A stretch of DNA of 64,000 bases, from the sequence record PP919962.1; one strand, given 5' to 3'. Each line of letters opens with the position of its first letter. Position 1 is the first letter of the stretch. The stretch comes from Klebsiella phage KP2025. A model generated the notes under the pieces. It saw only the letters and a list, made by a program, of their open reading frames with translations. It had not been told where the DNA came from and did not search any database. Positions 34,657 to 50,582 of the stretch are shown piece after piece. The position numbers and the translations under genes were made by a program.

Positions 34657-35535
34657 TTATCCGTTCAAATGGTCTTCAACCATCTTAATAAAATGTTTAT
34701 TGCTAAAGGTCTCAGCAGCCCCTGCATAGTAAACAACGACTCCCCTTTCTTCATAGAGGCTTTGTTCAAGATAATTCAAACCTGGGTTAACAACGATCAT
34801 CTTGGTTCCCATGTTTAGCGCAGGAAACAGTTCCCAGTTAAAGTTGATTACTTGGTTAGAGCAGCCAACTACAATCACCATGTCCTGAGCAGTTAAAGTA
34901 TCGAATAGTGCATACATGTCGGTGTAAAGAGGTGCAGCCTCACCGAAGAACACAACATTAGGTTTAACCCAAGGATAGTTATTAATATCCACCGCAGAGT
35001 AACCAATATCTTCAAGAATTTCATAACCACCAACTTCCCGACGATAACGGATTTCAGGGAGATAGCCATGAACATGTAGAACAGATTCACGTGCAACGCC
35101 AGCACGTTCCAGTAGATCATCTACGTTAGTAGTGATGTTATAGACGCGCTCAGGAGCCATTGCAAACCATTTAGCGATTTGCAGGTGAGCTGCGTTAGGC
35201 TCTACAGTTGCTAGTTCTACACGACGCTTGTTGTAGAAATTGTTTGTCTTCTCGTACAAATCCATCCCATCATCATCAATACCACCTACAACAGGCACAT
35301 CCGGGGATGTACGGCGGCGATAGCCAGCTTGGAATGCACCAATATCACACACTTCAGCAAGATCATACTCGTCCCATAGTGCTTTCCCACTATCGGTATC
35401 TGTACGGAATGTGCGTACACCACTATCGGCGCTAAGTCCAGCACCGGAAACCACAATTAACCTTCTTGGCATTTTTATCCCTCCACTATTTAATACACAT
35501 TGTGTTTGATAATTTATCATGTCTTGAAAATTCAT
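34657..35535 (-). CDS. Sir2-family (sirtuin-like) NAD-dependent protein
   Basis: GGAGGG RBS. VVSGAGLSADSGVRTFR matches sirtuin GAGIS..SGIP.FR NAD-binding motif. Confidence 0.7.
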   Translation of the reverse strand: MNFQDMINYQTQCVLNSGGIKMPRRLIVVSGAGLSADSGVRTFRTDTDSGKALWDEYDLAEVCDIGAFQAGYRRRTSPDVPVVGGIDDDGMDLYEKTNNFYNKRRVELATVEPNAAHLQIAKWFAMAPERVYNITTNVDDLLERAGVARESVLHVHGYLPEIRYRREVGGYEILEDIGYSAVDINNYPWVKPNVVFFGEAAPLYTDMYALFDTLTAQDMVIVVGCSNQVINFNWELFPALNMGTKMIVVNPGLNYLEQSLYEERGVVVYYAGAAETFSNKHFIKMVEDHLNG

Positions 35536-37334: not shown

Positions 37335-38270
37335 TCAATCTCCTTGAAATGGTTTGACCATGTGGCTGTTAGCCTTGAAACGCTCAATATAATCTGTTTC
37401 ACCCATACTTTCGTAGAACTTCATAACTACTCCGAAATTCTCCCAAGCGTACTCACGGAAGTAGCCTGACGTTATAGAGGTGCAAACTTTGCTTAAAGCC
37501 ATAACAAAACTCTGACGAGCAGGAACTTCAAAATTAAAAGGAATCTGCGAACGTTCCAGGGCTAGGACACAGCTTTCTTCGTACACACCGAGAAGACGGA
37601 TATGATTCTCCTGCTCAAAGAACTTCTCTTTGGAGGTCATCACTTCACTGTCATCTTTCATATACGATTTGTATGCAGGAACACCGAGAACTGCCACCGC
37701 TTCGTGAATGGTGTCGTGATCGTACACATATGGAACTTCGTCGCCTTTGAAGAAGTCTTTGCTCTTCACATCCAGGTTTGGGTGAGAATAGTTATAGGTT
37801 TCTTTCTCACGCATTTTGAACACATCCTCCAATTCTGCCGGGATGCTTGCACCCAGCGAACGCATGTAGTGAATGTCGTTCATGGTTTTGAAGAAATGAG
37901 GGCTATTCTTCTTATAGCGATGGCTCATTTTCAGAAGATACAGAACTTCCAGAGGAGCAACGCTATGGCGATCATCAAACATACCGATCAGGCTATCTTT
38001 GTGTTCTTCACAGTATTTCATGAGTGCCTCAGTGCTATCCCCGGGTTGAGCAATGTCATACTCAAGGTGAGCACCAGCCTCCATTTTCACATGGCCCTTA
38101 TTACCGTTACGTTCGATCAGTTCGACAAATTCATCATTTTCAAACAGTTTTACTTGTTCTTCCCACTCTGCTTCGGTGCAGAGGTAATCTAGATCTACGC
38201 AAGGACGATAAAAGTCTTTACCCATTCGACGTACCAGAATTTCAAGAGCACGGCTACCGATCAGAATCAT
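37335..38270 (-). CDS. hypothetical protein, possible minimal nucleotidyltransferase fold
   Basis: GAGGAGAAATAAC ATG. N-terminal LIGSRAL...VDLDYL resembles GS...DxD of pol-beta-type NTases (weak). Confidence 0.6.
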   Translation of the reverse strand: MILIGSRALEILVRRMGKDFYRPCVDLDYLCTEAEWEEQVKLFENDEFVELIERNGNKGHVKMEAGAHLEYDIAQPGDSTEALMKYCEEHKDSLIGMFDDRHSVAPLEVLYLLKMSHRYKKNSPHFFKTMNDIHYMRSLGASIPAELEDVFKMREKETYNYSHPNLDVKSKDFFKGDEVPYVYDHDTIHEAVAVLGVPAYKSYMKDDSEVMTSKEKFFEQENHIRLLGVYEESCVLALERSQIPFNFEVPARQSFVMALSKVCTSITSGYFREYAWENFGVVMKFYESMGETDYIERFKANSHMVKPFQGD

Positions 38271-38338
38271 GTTATTTCTCCTCTATTATTTGATGGAGAG
38301 AGTGTACCAGGTTTTGAAACTGCTGTCAACAGTTAGGC

Positions 38339-38362
38339 AATAAAAAACCCGCCGAAGCGGGT
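38339..38362 (-). terminator. rho-independent terminator (minus strand)
   Basis: Reverse complement CCCGCTTCGGCGGG then TTTTTTATT. Confidence 0.7.
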
Positions 38363-38377
38363 TGTCATTACATTTTA

Positions 38378-38647
38378 TCAGCACATCTCCGAGGAAGACA
38401 CCCAGATACCTTGGGTCAGTTTACCTTCCGCATCTGCATATTCACTTGCTCGCCAGCCTAAGTAATATTCTTCAATATCTGTACCTTTAGGATAATATGT
38501 TTGTCCATTTTCTCCATATTCGCCCCAGTAGGCTGTAACACCGCCCTCATCAGCCAAAGCGGCGATCTGATCTTTCACGGTCTCCACGTATTCCTCTGCG
38601 GCTTTCGTCAGTTCATCAATTTCTTTATCGTAATCACGTTTTTCCAT
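38378..38647 (-). CDS. W-SSS-C tail family paralog 1 (small acidic protein)
   Basis: GAGGAGAAGAAA ATG at 38647. Ends GIWVSSSEMC. The track's longer start at 38782 overlaps paralog 2. Confidence 0.55.
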   Translation of the reverse strand: MEKRDYDKEIDELTKAAEEYVETVKDQIAALADEGGVTAYWGEYGENGQTYYPKGTDIEEYYLGWRASEYADAEGKLTQGIWVSSSEMC

Positions 38648-38711
38648 TTTCTTCTCCTCTGCTTCTGCGATTAAATTTAGCTCTGGCATCAGGAATGACC
38701 AGAGCAGTTCA

Positions 38712-38936
38712 TTAGCAACTGGACGTGACCCAGACTGATCCATCTGCGTACACTCCAAACGTTTCAGAATTTCCTTCGCCAAAACAATCAGAAGACTGCC
38801 AATCTTCGAAGGTCATTTCTCCGCTGAGGGTTATCGCAAAGCCAAAATCATTTTCACGAGCTAGTTCTTCAAGTTCACGGATGGTCTTCTGCGCTTCTAC
38901 AGCTTTTGCCATTACAACGTCAATATCTCGACTCAT
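38712..38936 (-). CDS. W-SSS-C tail family paralog 2
   Basis: Ends SVWVTSSC. Helical N-terminus then FGF motif. Confidence 0.55.
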   Translation of the reverse strand: MSRDIDVVMAKAVEAQKTIRELEELARENDFGFAITLSGEMTFEDWQSSDCFGEGNSETFGVYADGSVWVTSSC

Positions 38937-38945
38937 TTTATCTCC

Positions 38946-39140
38946 TTAACAACCAAGAGAAGACGGGAACCAGTTATCACCAGTATACTCGTTCTCTTCT
39001 TCTGGATCAAAATAACCACCCATGCCGTAAGCCGGATGGAAACCAAAACCTTCACCTGTTTCCAAGGATAGGCGCTGTGCTTCTTCAAGAGCGGCTCTCG
39101 CCGCAGCTACTGCTTCACTTACTGTTTTAAATTCACTCAT
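38946..39140 (-). CDS. W-SSS-C tail family paralog 3
   Basis: Ends DNWFPSSLGC. N-terminal AVAAARAALEEA then GEGFGF. Confidence 0.6.
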   Translation of the reverse strand: MSEFKTVSEAVAAARAALEEAQRLSLETGEGFGFHPAYGMGGYFDPEEENEYTGDNWFPSSLGC

Positions 39141-39155
39141 TTTTATCTCCTATTA

Positions 39156-39593
39156 TTACCAGCAAATACTGCTTGAAATCCAACCATGCTCGTATCCAGC
39201 GTTAATGTGCGCTGAAAGAACTTGCTCTTTACCTACACTAAACTTTCCGTCTTCATAGACGAAAGGTTCTTGGATACCAGACTCTTCCCAGAGATTCATC
39301 AGCACCTGTTTAGCAGTGTTGATTTCATCCAGGCGTTCTTTACTAACCATAACATTGTTGTAGCAATAATCATAGATTGCATCTTCCTGAATAGGTTCCA
39401 TAGTCTCTTTGTTATAAGCCCATGTGGTCAGCATGTAATCATCTGTCCAATAAGGTTTAACTTCGAGAGGAATACCTTCCACATGAAGCCGCTCATCTTC
39501 ATCACCCAAGAACAAAACGGTAAATTTATATTCGCCGCTACTCAGATCGTAGTAATCTTCACCTACACGAAGGTTGTCAATGTTATTATACAT
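39156..39593 (-). CDS. W-SSS-C tail family paralog 4 (longer form)
   Basis: Ends HGWISSSICW; acidic. Confidence 0.6.
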   Translation of the reverse strand: MYNNIDNLRVGEDYYDLSSGEYKFTVLFLGDEDERLHVEGIPLEVKPYWTDDYMLTTWAYNKETMEPIQEDAIYDYCYNNVMVSKERLDEINTAKQVLMNLWEESGIQEPFVYEDGKFSVGKEQVLSAHINAGYEHGWISSSICW

Positions 39594-39603
39594 TTTAGCC
39601 CCC

Positions 39604-40023
39604 TTAACAAGTCATGCTACTAGAGCACCAAGCATGAGTACCTTGGATATAGGCAGAGCATTCGTCGTTACCAATATACACACGGTCATCTGATACAATA
39701 AGATCTCTTGTATTTACACCCAGAGACTTCAGCGTATCCACGATGTGTTGGCGTTCTTTATCTTTTCTTTTACGTTCTACAGGATCGATTAGACCGTGTT
39801 CATTAATAAATTCTTCAATATAATTATCCCCTTCAATAAATTCGTCATTATAATAATCTTCGTAAAGAATTGCATCGTTATGTTCAGGGAGTTCATTCAT
39901 TTCCTCTAGATATGCCTGTTTGTCTTCATCACTAGACCAAACACCATCAGCAAACACAATGCGAGCTACTTCATCACCCCAATTATCTTCGAATACTTGC
40001 CCAGCCACATATTTATTCTTCAC
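39604..40023 (-). CDS. W-SSS-C tail family paralog 5 (longer form)
   Basis: Ends HAWCSSSMTC. Internal GVWSSDE copy. Confidence 0.6.
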   Translation of the reverse strand: MKNKYVAGQVFEDNWGDEVARIVFADGVWSSDEDKQAYLEEMNELPEHNDAILYEDYYNDEFIEGDNYIEEFINEHGLIDPVERKRKDKERQHIVDTLKSLGVNTRDLIVSDDRVYIGNDECSAYIQGTHAWCSSSMTC

Positions 40024-40297
40024 AAGGTATCTCCTCTTCTAATACTGCTTTAATTTTAAATGCTTTACTTCCTAAGTAACCGTCGCAACGGTCTTCATCC
40101 CCATAGTGCGAATAAAAGTCAAATTGTACAGTTGATTCACTCATTAGAAAAATCATATCTGTATGCTTTGTACCTTCGGGAACAATATTTTGGATATGCG
40201 GTAGAAGTTTACAATCATAAAAACAAAGATCACCCGCACTACCTACTTCATCCCAACCTTCCCAAGACTCCACAAAAGAATGTTCTAAGCCTGCCAT
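40013..40297 (-). CDS. hypothetical acidic protein
   Basis: GAGGAGGG RBS. Confidence 0.55.
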   Translation of the reverse strand: MAGLEHSFVESWEGWDEVGSAGDLCFYDCKLLPHIQNIVPEGTKHTDMIFLMSESTVQFDFYSHYGDEDRCDGYLGSKAFKIKAVLEEEIPCEE

Positions 40298-40312
40298 ACA
40301 ACCCTCCTCTAG

Positions 40313-40471
40313 TTAACAATCATAAGAAGAACTACGCCAAGAGACATTTACTTCAACATTTTCCCCATCTTCTAAAGTAATGTTGAAATAATCATGCCCT
40401 AAACCCTCAGCACGAGCCATAACAATGGCCTCTTCTAGCTTTTGTGCAATCAGTTGCTCGATAGTTTTCAT
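40313..40471 (-). CDS. W-SSS-C tail family paralog 6 (52 aa)
   Basis: GAGGAGAAGTAA ATG. Ends VSWRSSSYDC. Below the track's 60 aa cutoff. Confidence 0.5.
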   Translation of the reverse strand: MKTIEQLIAQKLEEAIVMARAEGLGHDYFNITLEDGENVEVNVSWRSSSYDC

Positions 40472-40494
40472 TTACTTCTCCTCTATTCTAAATA

Positions 40495-40938
40495 TTACAC
40501 CAATACACTCTTGCTGATATCTTCTAAAAGAAAGCTGAATTCTAGAACTAAAAAATCTCCTTCAGAATTACTTTCTATATATACAGAAAAACCAACATCT
40601 GTGTTATCCTTAGAGAGTGGCCCCAAGTGAAGTTTATATTCTTTATGATCTTCTTTTGTATATGTTACTGTATAGAACATATCCCTAAGTAACCCAGCCA
40701 CAAAACGTTGTTTTTCTAACGGATTGGTATAAGTTAAAAGCTTCTCTTTTTGCTCCTCATTCAAAGGTCTTTCTACTGTATAGAAAGGAATTTCTTTCTT
40801 TTCTTCAGAATTAAGAATTACCGTAGAGTTTGTAGAATAAACCCTGTCTTTTAAACCCACCTCGTCTAACTTATCATTTACATATTTAGTTAAAGCAGGT
40901 GTTAATTTGAATATCTCGTTTACTTGTCTTATCGTCAT
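40495..40938 (-). CDS. hypothetical protein
   Basis: 147 aa. Confidence 0.6.
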   Translation of the reverse strand: MTIRQVNEIFKLTPALTKYVNDKLDEVGLKDRVYSTNSTVILNSEEKKEIPFYTVERPLNEEQKEKLLTYTNPLEKQRFVAGLLRDMFYTVTYTKEDHKEYKLHLGPLSKDNTDVGFSVYIESNSEGDFLVLEFSFLLEDISKSVLV

Positions 40939-42030: not shown

Positions 42031-42306
42031 TCAGCAGGTGACAGTGAATGGAGTGCTGAACGGCCAAGAACCAGTATCACGATACGGCTGTAACGGATCG
42101 TAAGGCTTCGGTGGCTTCTGAGCATCTTCCCAAATCTTTTGCAGGATTTTCCAGTTCTCATCAATGCTCTGATTAGGAACATCGGTTTCAACTTGGATAA
42201 TCTCTTTACTAACTAAGATTTGTTTCGTTAGATCAAGATCGTCTGTTTCAATGATCGTTTCTTTAATGACTTCACCGACAGTTTCTTTGATTGTTATTTT
42301 GTACAT
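42031..42306 (-). CDS. hypothetical protein
   Basis: 91 aa. Confidence 0.55.
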   Translation of the reverse strand: MYKITIKETVGEVIKETIIETDDLDLTKQILVSKEIIQVETDVPNQSIDENWKILQKIWEDAQKPPKPYDPLQPYRDTGSWPFSTPFTVTC

Positions 42307-43043
42307 TAGTCCTCCTCTAAAGTTGAATAAAACTTAACCGTTCCTTGCTCATCAAACCAACTAAATGTCAAATTATTGTTGAAACAAGACCCGGTATCCA
42401 TATACACGCGATTAGCATTTATTAGTGGTTCCGGTACATAAGAGTGACCATGAAACACATAATCTACGCCTAATACTTTAGGCAAAGAAATCCCCTCCTG
42501 AGCACAGGAAATCATATCTCTATCCCACATTAAAGACTCTGCAAAAATATTTTCCTTTTCCTTAGATAATCCCAGATTAGGTATCTCTGTTACTGGTAAA
42601 TATTCATAAGCAGAAGGATAACCTCCATGTATAAATGCTAACTTTTTACCTCTATGTTCTACTACTAAAACAACGGGGAGATTTTCTACCATTGTCGCTA
42701 GTAGACTAACACCATCTTCCCCAAGCTCACTCCAAACAGTATGCCCACCATTCTGATACCAACATTCGTAATAATCCCTACTACCTTCTAACATGCCTTT
42801 AATTAGCATATCTTCATGATTACCACGGATAGAAAAACGGTTAGACTTACGTGTGAATTCAATTACACATCGCAGATTTTGTTTACCCCTGTCAGTAAGA
42901 TCTCCGAGAGAAATAACATAATCTGTATCTCTAATTCCTAAAACTCTTTCTCCTTTTTTATAGAGATCGTAACATCCGTGTAAATCCCCTATGATAAATA
43001 AATCTTTATCATCCTCCAATTTAATAAATTCATAAAGTTTCAC
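42306..43043 (-). CDS. Ser/Thr protein phosphatase (lambda-PPase-type metallophosphoesterase)
   Basis: GDLHG, GDLTDRG and GNHE motifs. Confidence 0.85.
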   Translation of the reverse strand: MKLYEFIKLEDDKDLFIIGDLHGCYDLYKKGERVLGIRDTDYVISLGDLTDRGKQNLRCVIEFTRKSNRFSIRGNHEDMLIKGMLEGSRDYYECWYQNGGHTVWSELGEDGVSLLATMVENLPVVLVVEHRGKKLAFIHGGYPSAYEYLPVTEIPNLGLSKEKENIFAESLMWDRDMISCAQEGISLPKVLGVDYVFHGHSYVPEPLINANRVYMDTGSCFNNNLTFSWFDEQGTVKFYSTLEED

Positions 43044-47892: not shown

Positions 47893-47914
47893 TAAGGGGC
47901 TTACGCCCCTTTGT
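47893..47914 (-). terminator. hairpin terminator
   Basis: AGGGGC-TTAC-GCCCCT. Confidence 0.5.
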
Positions 47915-48414
47915 TAGTTGTAAGCATCAAGTGTTCCAGAGGTTAGAACCTTGATTACTCGCTCTGCACGATTAGGCGTTTGTTTATACCACTTACTCTT
48001 ACGTAAGTTAATACCAGCCTGAGTATAGTACGAATTGCTTACTAATGTCAAGCTGTTTTTGAAAGATTCTGCTCCAGCAATCCCCATTTGGAATACCATA
48101 TTGATGATTGCCATTTTACGAATAGGACTAACCTTATCGTAGATAGGAGACAGGATCTTACTTTGTTTAATTTGCTTAGTCGCTTTTTCAACGTCTTTCT
48201 TAAAGATAGTACGTGCTTCTGCTTCTGTGATAACTCCATTAGTCTTACGACCTACCAGCTTATCCAGTTCAGTAATAGCAACCGCTTTATCTTTAACTTT
48301 TGTTAAGAGATGACCAATTCCAACTGTCCAGTACCCTTCGGTATCTCTATAGACAGTTAGCTTTAAGCCTTCATCTAAGCGAAGCATATCAAACTCATCT
48401 ACTACTCTAGCCAT
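47914..48414 (-). CDS. T4-type lysozyme (glycoside hydrolase family 24 endolysin)
   Basis: MLRLDEGLKLTVYRDTEGYWTVGIGHLLT matches T4 e lysozyme [29 protein letters not shown]. ATG 48414 with AAGGAAAAC RBS. Confidence 0.9.
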   Translation of the reverse strand: MARVVDEFDMLRLDEGLKLTVYRDTEGYWTVGIGHLLTKVKDKAVAITELDKLVGRKTNGVITEAEARTIFKKDVEKATKQIKQSKILSPIYDKVSPIRKMAIINMVFQMGIAGAESFKNSLTLVSNSYYTQAGINLRKSKWYKQTPNRAERVIKVLTSGTLDAYN

Positions 48415-48572
48415 GTTTTCCTTATGCGTCAACCTCACCATGATCCAGAACATCAAAAAGCATGTGTTCTTGAGTTGGTTCACGTTTCGGTTTTGTTTTC
48501 TTAGTGTGGGACTTAAGCTCTGCTGCTAAAGCACGAGAAAAGATCTTACGTTTTTGTTTACCTTTCATATTG

Positions 48573-48839
48573 TTACTCCGCAATCTGAGCCATGAATTCA
48601 CGTAGTTCTGTAAAACCGCCTACGTGTTTATAGTCCACGTCAGCATCTTCCTGTACTAGAATCTGAGGAAAAGTGCGTGGTGGGACTCCTGTTTTCTCTA
48701 CGACCACTGCTTGCATGTGGTCTAGAGAATAATCTTCATCCAAGGTAAGATATTTAAAATCCTGACCTCTCATCTCCAACAGTTGTTTAGCCATGTTGCA
48801 GAATTGGCAGTCAGGTTTACCGTAGATTACAAAATTCAT
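48573..48839 (-). CDS. glutaredoxin (NrdC/NrdH-like redoxin)
   Basis: CQFC active-site motif; 88 aa. Confidence 0.75.
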   Translation of the reverse strand: MNFVIYGKPDCQFCNMAKQLLEMRGQDFKYLTLDEDYSLDHMQAVVVEKTGVPPRTFPQILVQEDADVDYKHVGGFTELREFMAQIAE

Positions 48840-49678
48840 TCTCTCTCCTTATTTAATAGAACTTTCAGTGATTCATTAATACCGCAGACTACTGGCTTTG
48901 GATTCAGGAAGCCTTTGGTTTCAAGATAAGATTTAGCAGGACGTGGTGCCTTGGAATTATATTGCGAAGCAGATATTGGGTTAACTTTAACTGTCGTATC
49001 TATTTCGCAGAAAATAGTTGTAGCGAAGTCATACCAACTTAAATAATCCTTACCTGCATAATGAAAAATACGAGCACCAACCCCATACTCCAGCATGGTA
49101 AAGATCATCTCGGCAAGGTCAGGAGCATATGTTGGACAAGAGTAATGATCACAGATAACATCAAACTCCCGCTGGCCTGCGTTATAACGACTTAACAGTG
49201 TTTTGAGGAAGTTATTGCCAAACTCACTGTATACTGAAGCAGTACGAATAATTAAAGCTCCAGGATGAACGGCATGAACTAACTCTTCACCAAAACGTTT
49301 GGAATAACCATATACATTTAGAGGATTGGTTGGAGCACCTTCAATACCAGGGAACGAACCATCAAAAACATAATCAGTCGAAATGTGGATTAAGTCAATG
49401 TGCAATTCACTACAAACTTTAGCAATATTAGCCGCACCATAAGCATTTACTTCTAAAGCCGCTTGAATGTTATCTTCTGCTTTGTCAACATCCGTGTAAG
49501 CTGCACAGTTAATAACTGCATCTGGCATCTCATCAATAATCAAGTTACGGATTTGCTCAAAATTGGTAATGTCGCTGCGTTTACGATCAGGTCTGATGAG
49601 TTCCACGTCATTGGGTTTCACTTTCTTGAGTGCTTGGCCTAATTGTCCTTGCGCTCCCAATACTAAATAACGTTTCAT
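48836..49678 (-). CDS. rmlD: dTDP-4-dehydrorhamnose reductase
   Basis: N-terminal GAQGQLG Rossmann motif and RmlD-like length. Confidence 0.75.
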   Translation of the reverse strand: MKRYLVLGAQGQLGQALKKVKPNDVELIRPDRKRSDITNFEQIRNLIIDEMPDAVINCAAYTDVDKAEDNIQAALEVNAYGAANIAKVCSELHIDLIHISTDYVFDGSFPGIEGAPTNPLNVYGYSKRFGEELVHAVHPGALIIRTASVYSEFGNNFLKTLLSRYNAGQREFDVICDHYSCPTYAPDLAEMIFTMLEYGVGARIFHYAGKDYLSWYDFATTIFCEIDTTVKVNPISASQYNSKAPRPAKSYLETKGFLNPKPVVCGINESLKVLLNKERE

Positions 49679-50244
49679 CCAAAGATCTCCCTTAACGTTT
49701 TAGCCTCTCGGTCTTTTTGGGATAAGATAGGCTTAAAGTAGTCATCATTAAAGATGAGGTCAAATCCCCAATCAACAGCCACATCTGGATCATTCCAAGC
49801 GAGGCTACGCTCTGACGTAGGATCGTAATATTCAGTGCATTTGTACTCGAAGTCGGCAGTATCAGAAACCACAACGAAACCGTGGGCGAAGCCTGGTGGA
49901 ATCCAGAACTGCACCTTGTTTTGTTCGCTAAGTACCACACCCTCCCACTCCCCAAAGGTCGGACTACCTTCACGCAAATCAACAGCTACGTCAAAGACCA
50001 TGCCACTTGTGCATCGCACCAACTTACCTTGAGGATTTGTTTCTTGATAGTGGAGTCCACGCAGGACTCCTTTTGAAGAACGAGAATGATTGTCTTGAAC
50101 AAATGTATATTTTCCAATAAGAGTATCATAACGAGCTTGATTAAAAGATTCTAGAAAAAATCCTCGGTCATCAGCAAATACTCTAGGTGTGATTATTAGG
50201 AGACCTTCAATACCTGTCTCTCTTACGTTATGAGTATTCTCCAC
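49675..50244 (-). CDS. rmlC: dTDP-4-dehydrorhamnose 3,5-epimerase
   Basis: RGLHYQ and VFADDRGFF motifs. Start uncertain: GTG 50244 with GAGGGG RBS, or TTG 50277. Confidence 0.75.
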   Translation of the reverse strand: MENTHNVRETGIEGLLIITPRVFADDRGFFLESFNQARYDTLIGKYTFVQDNHSRSSKGVLRGLHYQETNPQGKLVRCTSGMVFDVAVDLREGSPTFGEWEGVVLSEQNKVQFWIPPGFAHGFVVVSDTADFEYKCTEYYDPTSERSLAWNDPDVAVDWGFDLIFNDDYFKPILSQKDREAKTLREIFG

Positions 50245-50255
50245 TCTTACCCCTC

Positions 50256-50582
50256 TTACCAAACATTTTGACTGCAAATGGTTGTTGTCTCAATTCCATA
50301 TTTCTCTTTAAGCTCTTTAGCAATTTCTTCAGCTTTTACAGTAAGGAATTTCAAATCTATGTCTTTTGCATAATCTCCGCCAGCTAGTTCAACGCCAAAC
50401 ATACAATCTTCTTGCGCTGCATCATAATAAGGAGAAGCAGAAACTACTTTAAGACAATCATATAGGAACCAAGTGAAATCCCCATCATATCCTTCAACAA
50501 CTTCTTCATTATCACCTAATGCTTGCTCCCAAACTGAGAAAGGAGCACCTTGAATCATTTTCCAGCCAATATCAATTCCCAT
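50256..50582 (-). CDS. hypothetical protein
   Basis: 108 aa. Confidence 0.55.
   Translation of the reverse strand: MGIDIGWKMIQGAPFSVWEQALGDNEEVVEGYDGDFTWFLYDCLKVVSASPYYDAAQEDCMFGVELAGGDYAKDIDLKFLTVKAEEIAKELKEKYGIETTTICSQNVW

Follow-up and report, generated by a model that had tools for sequence, protein, structure and literature searches.

The locus at positions 38378-40471 of Klebsiella phage KP2025 DNA (sequence record PP919962.1; the whole 64,000-nucleotide stretch that was analyzed is called the window) raises the question of why six small proteins encoded on one strand should end in nearly the same C-terminal tail, W-x-S-S-S-x-x-C. An earlier reading of the DNA letters alone (the sequence-only reading) had suggested a recognition tail for a protease or phosphatase, a substrate for Ser/Cys modification, or a sorting signal. 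We found that the six proteins are members of a widespread, phage-only family present in T4-like, jumbo, and other large phages and that the tail genes and a gene for a DUF7277-DUF7275 protein show near-obligate coinheritance. A relationship in which the latter, as a putative enzyme, would act on the small proteins through their tails is weighed below against its alternatives.

The six tail proteins and their family

The array consists of six genes, listed here by window position.

38378-38782 (other candidate starts at 38743, 38689, and 38647), minus strand: ORF1 (open reading frame 1), from the ORF list, ending GIWVSSSEMC
38712-38936, minus strand: ORF2, from the ORF list, ending SVWVTSSC
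38946-39140, minus strand: ORF3, from the ORF list, ending DNWFPSSLGC
39156-39593, minus strand: ORF4, from the ORF list, ending HGWISSSICW
39604-40023, minus strand: ORF5, from the ORF list, ending HAWCSSSMTC
40313-40471, minus strand: ORF6, the minimal member (52 amino acids), ending VSWRSSSYDC

All six satisfy the rule W-x-[S/P/A]-S-S-x(0-3)-C at or next to the C terminus, and each gene is preceded by a Shine-Dalgarno-like sequence. The ORF list places them on the minus strand where the sequence-only reading had put them, with the tail W-x-S-S-S-x-x-C or a close variant of it. ORF4, however, ends in C-W rather than in C, and the tail of ORF2 is shorter and is accompanied by an internal WQSSDC. 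Positions 38381-38404 encode the ORF1 tail, IWVSSSEMC; the relatives of this protein begin at the equivalent of MEKRDY (38647), and initiation at 38782 would be at a TTG codon.

The six genes are real, their tail is conserved, and they are under purifying selection. The tail pattern is found at the ends of seven ORFs in the window, versus a mean of 0.3 and a maximum of 2 in 100 codon shuffles. The seventh, at 1328-1426, was rejected as a tail gene: it lies antisense to an authentic plus-strand gene and agrees with the 0.3 expected by chance from the shuffles. The tails persist in orthologs from KP13-26, phi1_175008, phAPEC8, and Citrobacter phage Tr1, and the ratio of nonsynonymous to synonymous substitution rates (dN/dS) versus phi1_175008 is 0.00 to 0.26 for five of the genes, with dS being saturated for ORF4. 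Because the Ser codons differ among the paralogs (TCT/TCC/TCG, AGT/AGC, and TCA), the conservation is at the protein level, and a DNA repeat or regulatory motif as the origin of the tail is ruled out.

The region from 38300 to 40500 is 97% identical to Klebsiella phage KP13-26 and 86 to 91% identical to FKP3 and phi1_175008, all of which are Stephanstirmvirinae of about 145 kb in the phAPEC8/phi92 group. The eight genes beneath this match are all annotated as "hypothetical protein," and the window itself belongs to a phAPEC8-like Klebsiella phage of this subfamily. The strong acidity ascribed to the six proteins was confirmed (pI 4.05 to 4.35), although the whole surrounding gene block is acidic too (median pI 4.86).

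When their C-terminal regions (the last ~55 to 90 residues) are aligned, all six proteins display a single layout, in which an amphipathic helix leads into a G-hydrophobic turn and one or two strands, after which a variable acidic stretch precedes [G]-W-x-S-S-S-x-x-C. A full-length MAFFT alignment misaligns the tails. The helix and turn had been attributed to four of the proteins; they are indeed present, but in all six once the last ~55 residues are aligned.

The paralogs represent distinct types, which we counted in a pooled set of 106 viral loci, 80 of them retrieved via the DUF7277-DUF7275 gene and 26 via the AYGMGG motif of the small proteins. The commonest is the ORF3 type (64 loci), with a helix, ETGEGFGF, AYGMGG, and NWFPSSLGC, which matches PHROG 899 (E = 3.5e-7) and fits the family consensus AYGMGGTYYP...GWVSSSxxC. 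The ORF1 type (49 loci; "GEYGxGxTYYPKG ... GxWxSSSxMC"; PHROG 899, E = 3.5e-11) has homologs in T4-like phages, such as gp141 of Edwardsiella phage PEi20. ORF2 (32 loci; PHROG 899, E = 4.3e-5) carries two motif copies, an internal FEDWQSSDC and the terminal VWVTSSC. These three types span unrelated phage backbones, with the ORF2 type including T4-like phages. ORF4 and ORF5 (6 loci each) are confined to Stephanstirmvirinae-like loci, and each has an extra N-terminal domain ahead of a C-terminal module that ends in WISSSICW in ORF4 and AWCSSSMTC in ORF5; many ORF5 orthologs end in WCSSSMSC, and the internal GVWSSDE that had been noticed in the fifth paralog lies within its extra domain. ORF6 (8 loci) has orthologs P0087, P0092, and P0095, and its "SSSYxC" tail recurs with the same layout in RB69ORF136c and other T4-like phages. 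Significant PHROG matches were absent for ORF4, ORF5, and ORF6, so that PHROG 899 takes in three of the six.

Profile-profile comparison aligned ORF4 with ORF5 at 90% probability over 73 columns, ORF1 with ORF3 at 52%, and ORF2 with ORF3 at 51 to 59%. After removal of the tails, hhalign gave 56% for ORF4-ORF5 and 59% for ORF2-ORF3, with the remaining pairs at noise level. The proposal of a tandem paralog family is supported, with partial statistical backing for homology beyond the tail, and the tail is the most conserved feature of the family.

A hidden Markov model (HMM) of the ORF1 type alone misses the other five paralogs. When 1.8 billion representative proteins were searched exhaustively with a profile, 51 reached E <= 1e-3, 3 of which were unrelated repeat proteins, and a follow-up search yielded 290 clusters, all of them unnamed or "hypothetical" and devoid of any Pfam domain. 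The homologs found in this way are spread widely among phages; they lie on contigs as large as 395 kb, and among them are proteins of Edwardsiella phage PEi20, Enterobacter phage Entb_45, Citrobacter phage CkP1, and Myxococcus phage Mx1. Their consensus reads helix-EAExIADEhGhxFxF-xAYGMGGTYYPK-(acidic linker, often W[DE]SS)-EGWVSSSxxC, and in a 47-sequence alignment W, S(+3), S(+4), and C are invariant. The logo of 219 nonredundant members is [DE]-x-G-G-W-x-[S/P/A]-S-S-x-x-C; Cys is the final residue in 210 of them, and position +3 is Ser in all 219, though the search pattern permitted Thr. W-x-S-S units are often repeated ahead of the C terminus, and the median pI of the family is 4.38.

An AlphaFold model of ORF1 (mean confidence score pLDDT 88; predicted template modeling score, pTM, 0.72) places the Trp in the last beta-strand, with the Ser/Cys end after it, so that the tail is predicted to be the surface C-terminal end of a folded domain rather than floppy. 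Scans of the small proteins against Pfam, NCBIfam, and PADLOC were all empty, and neither the sequence profile of the family nor its fold found a relative in the PDB. Together with the literature, in which no match was found either, these searches uphold the statement that the tail belongs to no characterized family. Neither a signal peptide nor a hydrophobic segment is present in the small proteins.

Several variants of the family were also encountered. A 172-amino-acid protein (locus L071, 3449-4030) that ends in WSSSSMIC carries at its N terminus a WYL_2 Sm-like domain (PF10902; score of 34 bits, above the threshold), which is the only recognizable head domain met on the tail module; the heads of the larger members vary. 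The metagenomic protein P0189 (134 amino acids) contains two tandem family domains, with the first tail, GWAASSQSC, being internal and the second module ending in ...VWDHSGCAF; either the motif can exist away from a free C terminus or this is a read-through artifact. Array genes in two further loci (L028, 3968-4399, and L035, 4274-4693) stop just after the Trp (...YDYGWDL and ...YDYGWNV), without the Ser/Cys end; they match the family HMM or body and are natural tail-truncated relatives.

Linkage of the tail genes to a DUF7277-DUF7275 gene

On a 395-kb jumbo-phage contig and a 43-kb T4-like contig, the family gene is followed by a gene for a DUF7277 plus DUF7275 protein of ~310 to 350 amino acids. 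The corresponding features of the window are as follows.

37335-38270, minus strand: partner enzyme gene encoding a 311-amino-acid DUF7277-DUF7275 protein (Pfam, PHROG 2141, and synteny)
38301-38329, minus strand: sigma-70-like promoter (TTGACA, 17-nucleotide spacer, TG-TACACT) upstream of the enzyme gene; a consensus match only
38346-38363, minus strand: intrinsic-terminator-like hairpin directly after ORF1 (AACCCGC-TTCG-GCGGGTT and then a T run)

ORF1 ends 107 nucleotides (nt) upstream of the start of the enzyme gene, on the same strand. Among the 80 viral loci retrieved with the enzyme, family HMM matches lie directly upstream and on the same strand in 72, and nearly all of the rest have tail-pattern ORFs. 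Reciprocally, all 26 loci retrieved by the AYGMGG motif alone have the enzyme gene 0 to 1.5 kb downstream. In the pooled set, one to six tail ORFs (median, 2) are found within 3 kb upstream of the enzyme gene in 102 of 106 loci, with the six of the window as the highest count; of the four loci that seem to lack them, one (L061) carries a WVQSSC variant not covered by the pattern. The tail pattern is present in 267 of 1,756 upstream ORFs versus 13 of 10,981 ORFs elsewhere. Tail ORFs accompany 34 of the 36 enzyme clusters formed at 60% identity, and the enzyme strand carries every one of the 284 tail ORFs within 4 kb. The gap to the enzyme start is 30 nt or less in 20 loci. We found no mention of either family, or of the pairing of PHROG 899 with PHROG 2141, in the papers searched.

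In the window, the array and the enzyme gene are neighbors rather than a strict operon, because the strong terminator-like hairpin (38346-38363) and the sigma-70-like promoter (38301-38329) intervene. phAPEC8 has an annotated terminator at the position equivalent to the hairpin. The 42 nt around the hairpin (38335-38376) also match, at 93% identity, an intergenic site that lacks annotation in 25 Vibrio phage records, and Vibrio anguillarum is the listed host in most of these; this likeness may reflect a shared terminator or a chance similarity of hairpins.

In RB69, the module lies between e.3 and e.2 and comprises ORF139c/138c, ORF137c, and ORF136c, followed by ORF134c. In the reference sequence (L114, 3372-3678), the ORF1-type member is split over two frames: ORF139c ends ...YYPKGEIVSQWYEK, and the next frame runs on to ...GAWVSSPALC. 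The split could represent a pseudogene, a sequencing error, or a frameshift.

The 311-amino-acid enzyme matches DUF7275 (E = 2.3e-74) and DUF7277 (E = 3.4e-11) in Pfam, as well as PHROG 2141. Neither G5-S6 nor D26-L-D28 varies among 32 close and 6 distant homologs, and E70 is invariant within the tail-associated subfamily; with these residues, the N-terminal domain carries the G-S / D-x-D / E signature of pol-beta-type nucleotidyltransferases. Three members have weak Pfam matches to the nucleotidyltransferase family DUF6036 (best E = 0.0048), and some GenBank records name homologs "nucleotidyltransferase." His, Asp, and Glu abound in the C-terminal domain, whose invariant residues (K114, H117, K128, H185-D186, H189, E231, E232, E239, and R240) suggest a second, metal-dependent site. 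No HD or other family was found for this domain in Pfam scans (E <= 10) or PDB profile searches, in which an RNase L match (E = 0.32) was not significant. A HEPN assignment was rejected: although the window protein has R118-x6-H125, neither position is constant among distant homologs.

Enzyme homologs occur in 733 phage records, including many T4-like, Acinetobacter, Aeromonas, Pseudomonas, and jumbo phages. A scan of 185,579 bacterial and archaeal species genomes returned three homologs, all on contigs of metagenome-assembled genomes, which we assumed to be phage DNA; one of these contigs, at 167 kb, is as long as a T4-like phage genome. Distant homologs (~30% identity) without upstream tail genes include KVP40.0037, BillNye gp180, DSS3_VP1 gp100, and actinophage proteins. 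Most of these distant homologs lack R118, T129, R154, Y161, H163, C263, and the TSITSGWFRE motif, which are invariant in the subfamily; C263 is present in 32 of 32 tail-associated enzymes versus 1 of 6 tail-less distant homologs.

RNA repair or tRNA genes were seen near distant or jumbo-phage homologs in five loci (L116, L115, L005, L121, and L122). The homolog of DSS3_VP1 is near a metallophosphoesterase and RNA ligase 2, that of BillNye is near a polynucleotide kinase, that of the 395-kb contig is near an RNA ligase, and those of Gordonia phage Norvs and Rhodococcus phage NiceHouse are near tRNA clusters. The ancestral enzyme may act on RNA ends.

What the tail may do

A constant C-terminal module is thus combined with a variable remainder, consisting of acidic loops or, in ORF4 and ORF5, of whole extra N-terminal domains. 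In the reading that we prefer, the enzyme would recognize the small proteins by physical contact with the C-terminal tail, for which the Trp and the terminal Cys would serve as determinants, and would most probably also modify the tail covalently, with the invariant Ser as the site of O-nucleotidylylation or a related phosphoryl transfer. The differing paralog bodies would address different targets in early infection, in host takeover or counterdefense. We regard a tail-mediated enzyme-client relationship of this kind as a tentative explanation, quite possible but short of probable. Covalent modification of Ser is favored because position +3 is always Ser and never Thr, because the motif is a run of small hydroxyl residues, and because W-x-S-S units are often repeated ahead of the C terminus. 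Nucleotidylylation of Ser in particular is a narrower claim, and a doubtful one. The same doubt applies to the fuller picture of a dedicated enzyme that would put a nucleotide-derived group on the tails, perhaps to be removed by its own second domain, with the tail acting as a portable "modify-me" tag.

Several observations weigh against this reading. Ser-rich motifs can be purely structural, and the nucleotidylylation model assigns the terminal Cys no role. In profile-profile comparison, the paralog pairs other than those named above align through the tail alone, and the tail that they share might have spread as a module in its own right instead of coming from a common ancestor. The gap between the tail genes and the enzyme start exceeds 600 nt in 26 loci, and in the window a terminator-like hairpin and a promoter lie in that gap. 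For the enzyme, PDB profile searches with the whole protein and with the C-terminal domain gave nothing significant, and a single-sequence AlphaFold model had a pLDDT of 38 and was not used, so that the nucleotidyltransferase fold is putative.

The explanation that survives best beside it, although it must be called unlikely, is that the tail binds the DUF7275 enzyme noncovalently and that the small proteins, any of which could take the place of another, adapt, inhibit, or activate one enzyme and so direct it to various substrates (RNA, nucleotides, or host proteins, for example). It draws on the same synteny evidence as the covalent reading. Furthermore, variable heads, including the Sm-like WYL_2 domain, on a constant C-terminal module look adaptor-like, one to six different paralogs occur per enzyme, and tail lengths differ within a single locus. 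However, an invariant Ser that is never replaced by Thr, together with a run of small hydroxyl residues, is met more typically at acceptor sites than in docking anchors.

Alternatively, the tail may have only a structural role as the last strand and its cap, with adjacency to the enzyme reflecting the shared timing or ancestry of an accessory block; the small proteins would then work independently, for instance, by mimicking DNA with their acidity or by inhibiting host proteins in some other way. The position of the Trp in a beta-strand of the model fold, the acidity of the family (median pI 4.38), and the terminator and promoter that part the array from the enzyme gene in the window are all consistent with this idea. 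We nevertheless consider it improbable, since the tail is kept where the paralog bodies cease to align, which would be unusual for a structural strand, and since co-occurrence is two-way and holds in 34 of 36 divergent enzyme clusters on very different phage backbones, where the other neighbors are not conserved. The tail-less enzyme homologs also lack the residues that are invariant in the subfamily.

The partners put forward in the sequence-only reading fare less well. There, the tail was taken as a signal for a phosphatase (as phospho-Ser), as a degron for an HslV-like peptidase, ClpX, or HslU, or as a sorting signal. The phosphatase and the other genes in question were located relative to the module; two features of the window are relevant.

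42306-43043, minus strand: lambda/NinI-type Ser/Thr phosphatase (calcineurin-like; Pfam Metallophos, E = 1.2e-13)
40013-40297, minus strand: nonmember gene between ORF5 and ORF6 (PHROG 4991), without the tail

Within ~5 kb of the module, the DUF7277-DUF7275 gene is found in 105 of the 106 loci, the phosphatase in 21, a SLOG/DprA-like gene in 10, a Sir2 gene in 5, and an HslV-like gene in 1. A relative of the PHROG 4991 gene is present in 10 loci. A Ser-rich tail could be phosphorylated, and the phosphatase recurs in several lineages in varied arrangements, being on the upstream side in Stephanstirmvirinae and immediately downstream of the enzyme gene in ~360-kb jumbo phages and one 117-kb contig (L092); it is a possible accessory neighbor and not a constant partner, with ~80% of the modules having no phosphatase nearby. 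On these counts, the SLOG/DprA-like protein and the HslV-like peptidase were rejected as conserved partners. Degron and sorting roles are weakened by the tail's predicted structure, in which the Trp is within the last beta-strand, and by the absence of a signal peptide and of hydrophobic segments; the tail is also not known to resemble any ClpX or HslU tag. Among the functions suggested, that of a substrate for Ser/Cys modification is compatible with our findings, whereas the phosphatase, degron, and sorting model as a whole appears quite improbable.

The terminal Cys, possibly together with C263 of the enzyme, may instead form a disulfide or a shared metal site, so that the tail would drive oligomerization or covalent tethering in place of Ser modification. 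In its favor, Cys is the last residue in 210 of 219 members, the ORF2 type has two W-x-S-S-x-C units, and C263 is present in 32 of 32 tail-associated enzymes versus 1 of 6 tail-less ones. However, that correlation lacks phylogenetic independence, there is a single Cys per tail and no His/Cys cluster, and the cytoplasm is reducing; we consider tethering very unlikely. A precursor of the kind found among ribosomally synthesized and posttranslationally modified peptides, in which Ser would be dehydrated and the C-terminal Cys bound in a thioether or aminovinyl-Cys ring, is hardly credible: although a Ser run followed by a C-terminal Cys resembles the ends of lanthipeptide cores, no dehydratase, cyclase, LanD-type decarboxylase, radical-SAM enzyme, protease, or exporter was found among 18 scanned window proteins around the array or in the precomputed Pfam matches for the genes of two distant contexts, the tail follows a conserved folded domain (pLDDT 88) rather than a leader peptide, and internal copies of the tail exist.

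Other genes of the window were noted in passing. The ORF at 42031-42306 (minus strand), which ends in WPFSTPFTVTC, was considered as a further tail gene and rejected. It encodes a 91-amino-acid acidic protein of PHROG 15301, located between the phosphatase and SLOG/DprA-like genes and ending ...PFTVTC, and its orthologs in four of four related phages keep P-F-[TE]-[VI]-T-C with the terminal Cys and without the W-x-S-S motif (P-F-T-V-T-C in the window protein); it is a second, different conserved C-terminal-Cys family in the same gene block. A Sir2-family gene at 34657-35535 (minus strand) lies 2 to 3 kb downstream of the DUF7275 gene, as does one in Vibrio phage KVP40 (L117, 6052-6792). At ~47900-50300 (minus strand), near a thioredoxin-like gene and PhoH, relatives L001 and L002 annotate a dTDP-rhamnose-type sugar pathway (dTDP-4-dehydrorhamnose reductase, 3,5-epimerase, and nucleotide-sugar epimerase), which is an unusual metabolic set for a phage.

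Significance and comparison with known systems

The phages with the module include model groups and groups considered for therapy, and we could find no name, structure, or paper for either component. A conserved 8-residue C-terminal tag on diverged proteins that is tied to one enzyme offers a tractable handle, since it gives a rule for locating all candidate clients of the enzyme in any phage genome, and the covalent reading predicts a specific biochemical event on a defined residue. Such a system could expose a new mode of phage control over batteries of host-directed effectors. If the "modify-me" tag is true, many effector heads would be under the control of one enzyme during infection, in an undescribed protein modification system; if the tail is only a docking peptide, this would still be a new adaptor-enzyme system.

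The closest catalogued entries, PHROG 899, PHROG 2141, and Pfam DUF7277/DUF7275, have no function attached. Among characterized systems, the DNA mimics Ocr, ArdA, and Arn are likewise small, strongly acidic, and among phage early genes, but they show no sequence or fold similarity to the tail proteins and have neither a conserved C-terminal motif nor an obligate enzyme partner. Lanthipeptide precursors, the substrates of LanD/EpiD, share the Ser run and C-terminal Cys, whereas the phage loci are without nearby modification enzymes, the domain before the tail is folded and conserved, and the proteins are cytoplasmic and acidic.

Three nucleotidyltransferase systems offer parallels to the proposed chemistry, although similarity in sequence or fold backs none of them. 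In the MntA-HepT type VII toxin-antitoxin system, a minimal nucleotidyltransferase AMPylates its HEPN partner, and the phage arrangement would resemble it in that the nucleotidyltransferase gene adjoins the gene of the small protein to be modified. However, the phage small proteins are without HEPN, the Rx6H of the enzyme (R118...H125) is not conserved across the superfamily, and the module described here is confined to phages and would have multiple clients. GlnD, acting on PII, and GlnE, acting on glutamine synthetase, are nucleotidyltransferases that uridylylate or adenylylate a protein hydroxyl. The likeness would be that of a pol-beta-type domain modifying a hydroxyl of a small partner, but their acceptor is a Tyr and that of the phage would be a Ser-rich C-terminal tail, there is no sequence relationship, their partners are not in tandem arrays, and an HD or ACT domain is not demonstrable in the phage enzyme.

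CitX and MdcG, which have a nucleotidyltransferase fold, act on the small acidic acyl carrier proteins of citrate lyase and malonate decarboxylase, where a Ser receives a prosthetic group derived from a nucleotide. The phage module would share a very acidic small client, a Ser acceptor, and a 2.7.7-type transferase. Their acceptor Ser is internal, however, the phage has no genes for synthesis of a prosthetic group, and neither sequence nor fold matches. The phage module, whose function and mechanism we infer, fits no known system, and the six-copy array described here is the most expanded example of it among the loci analyzed.

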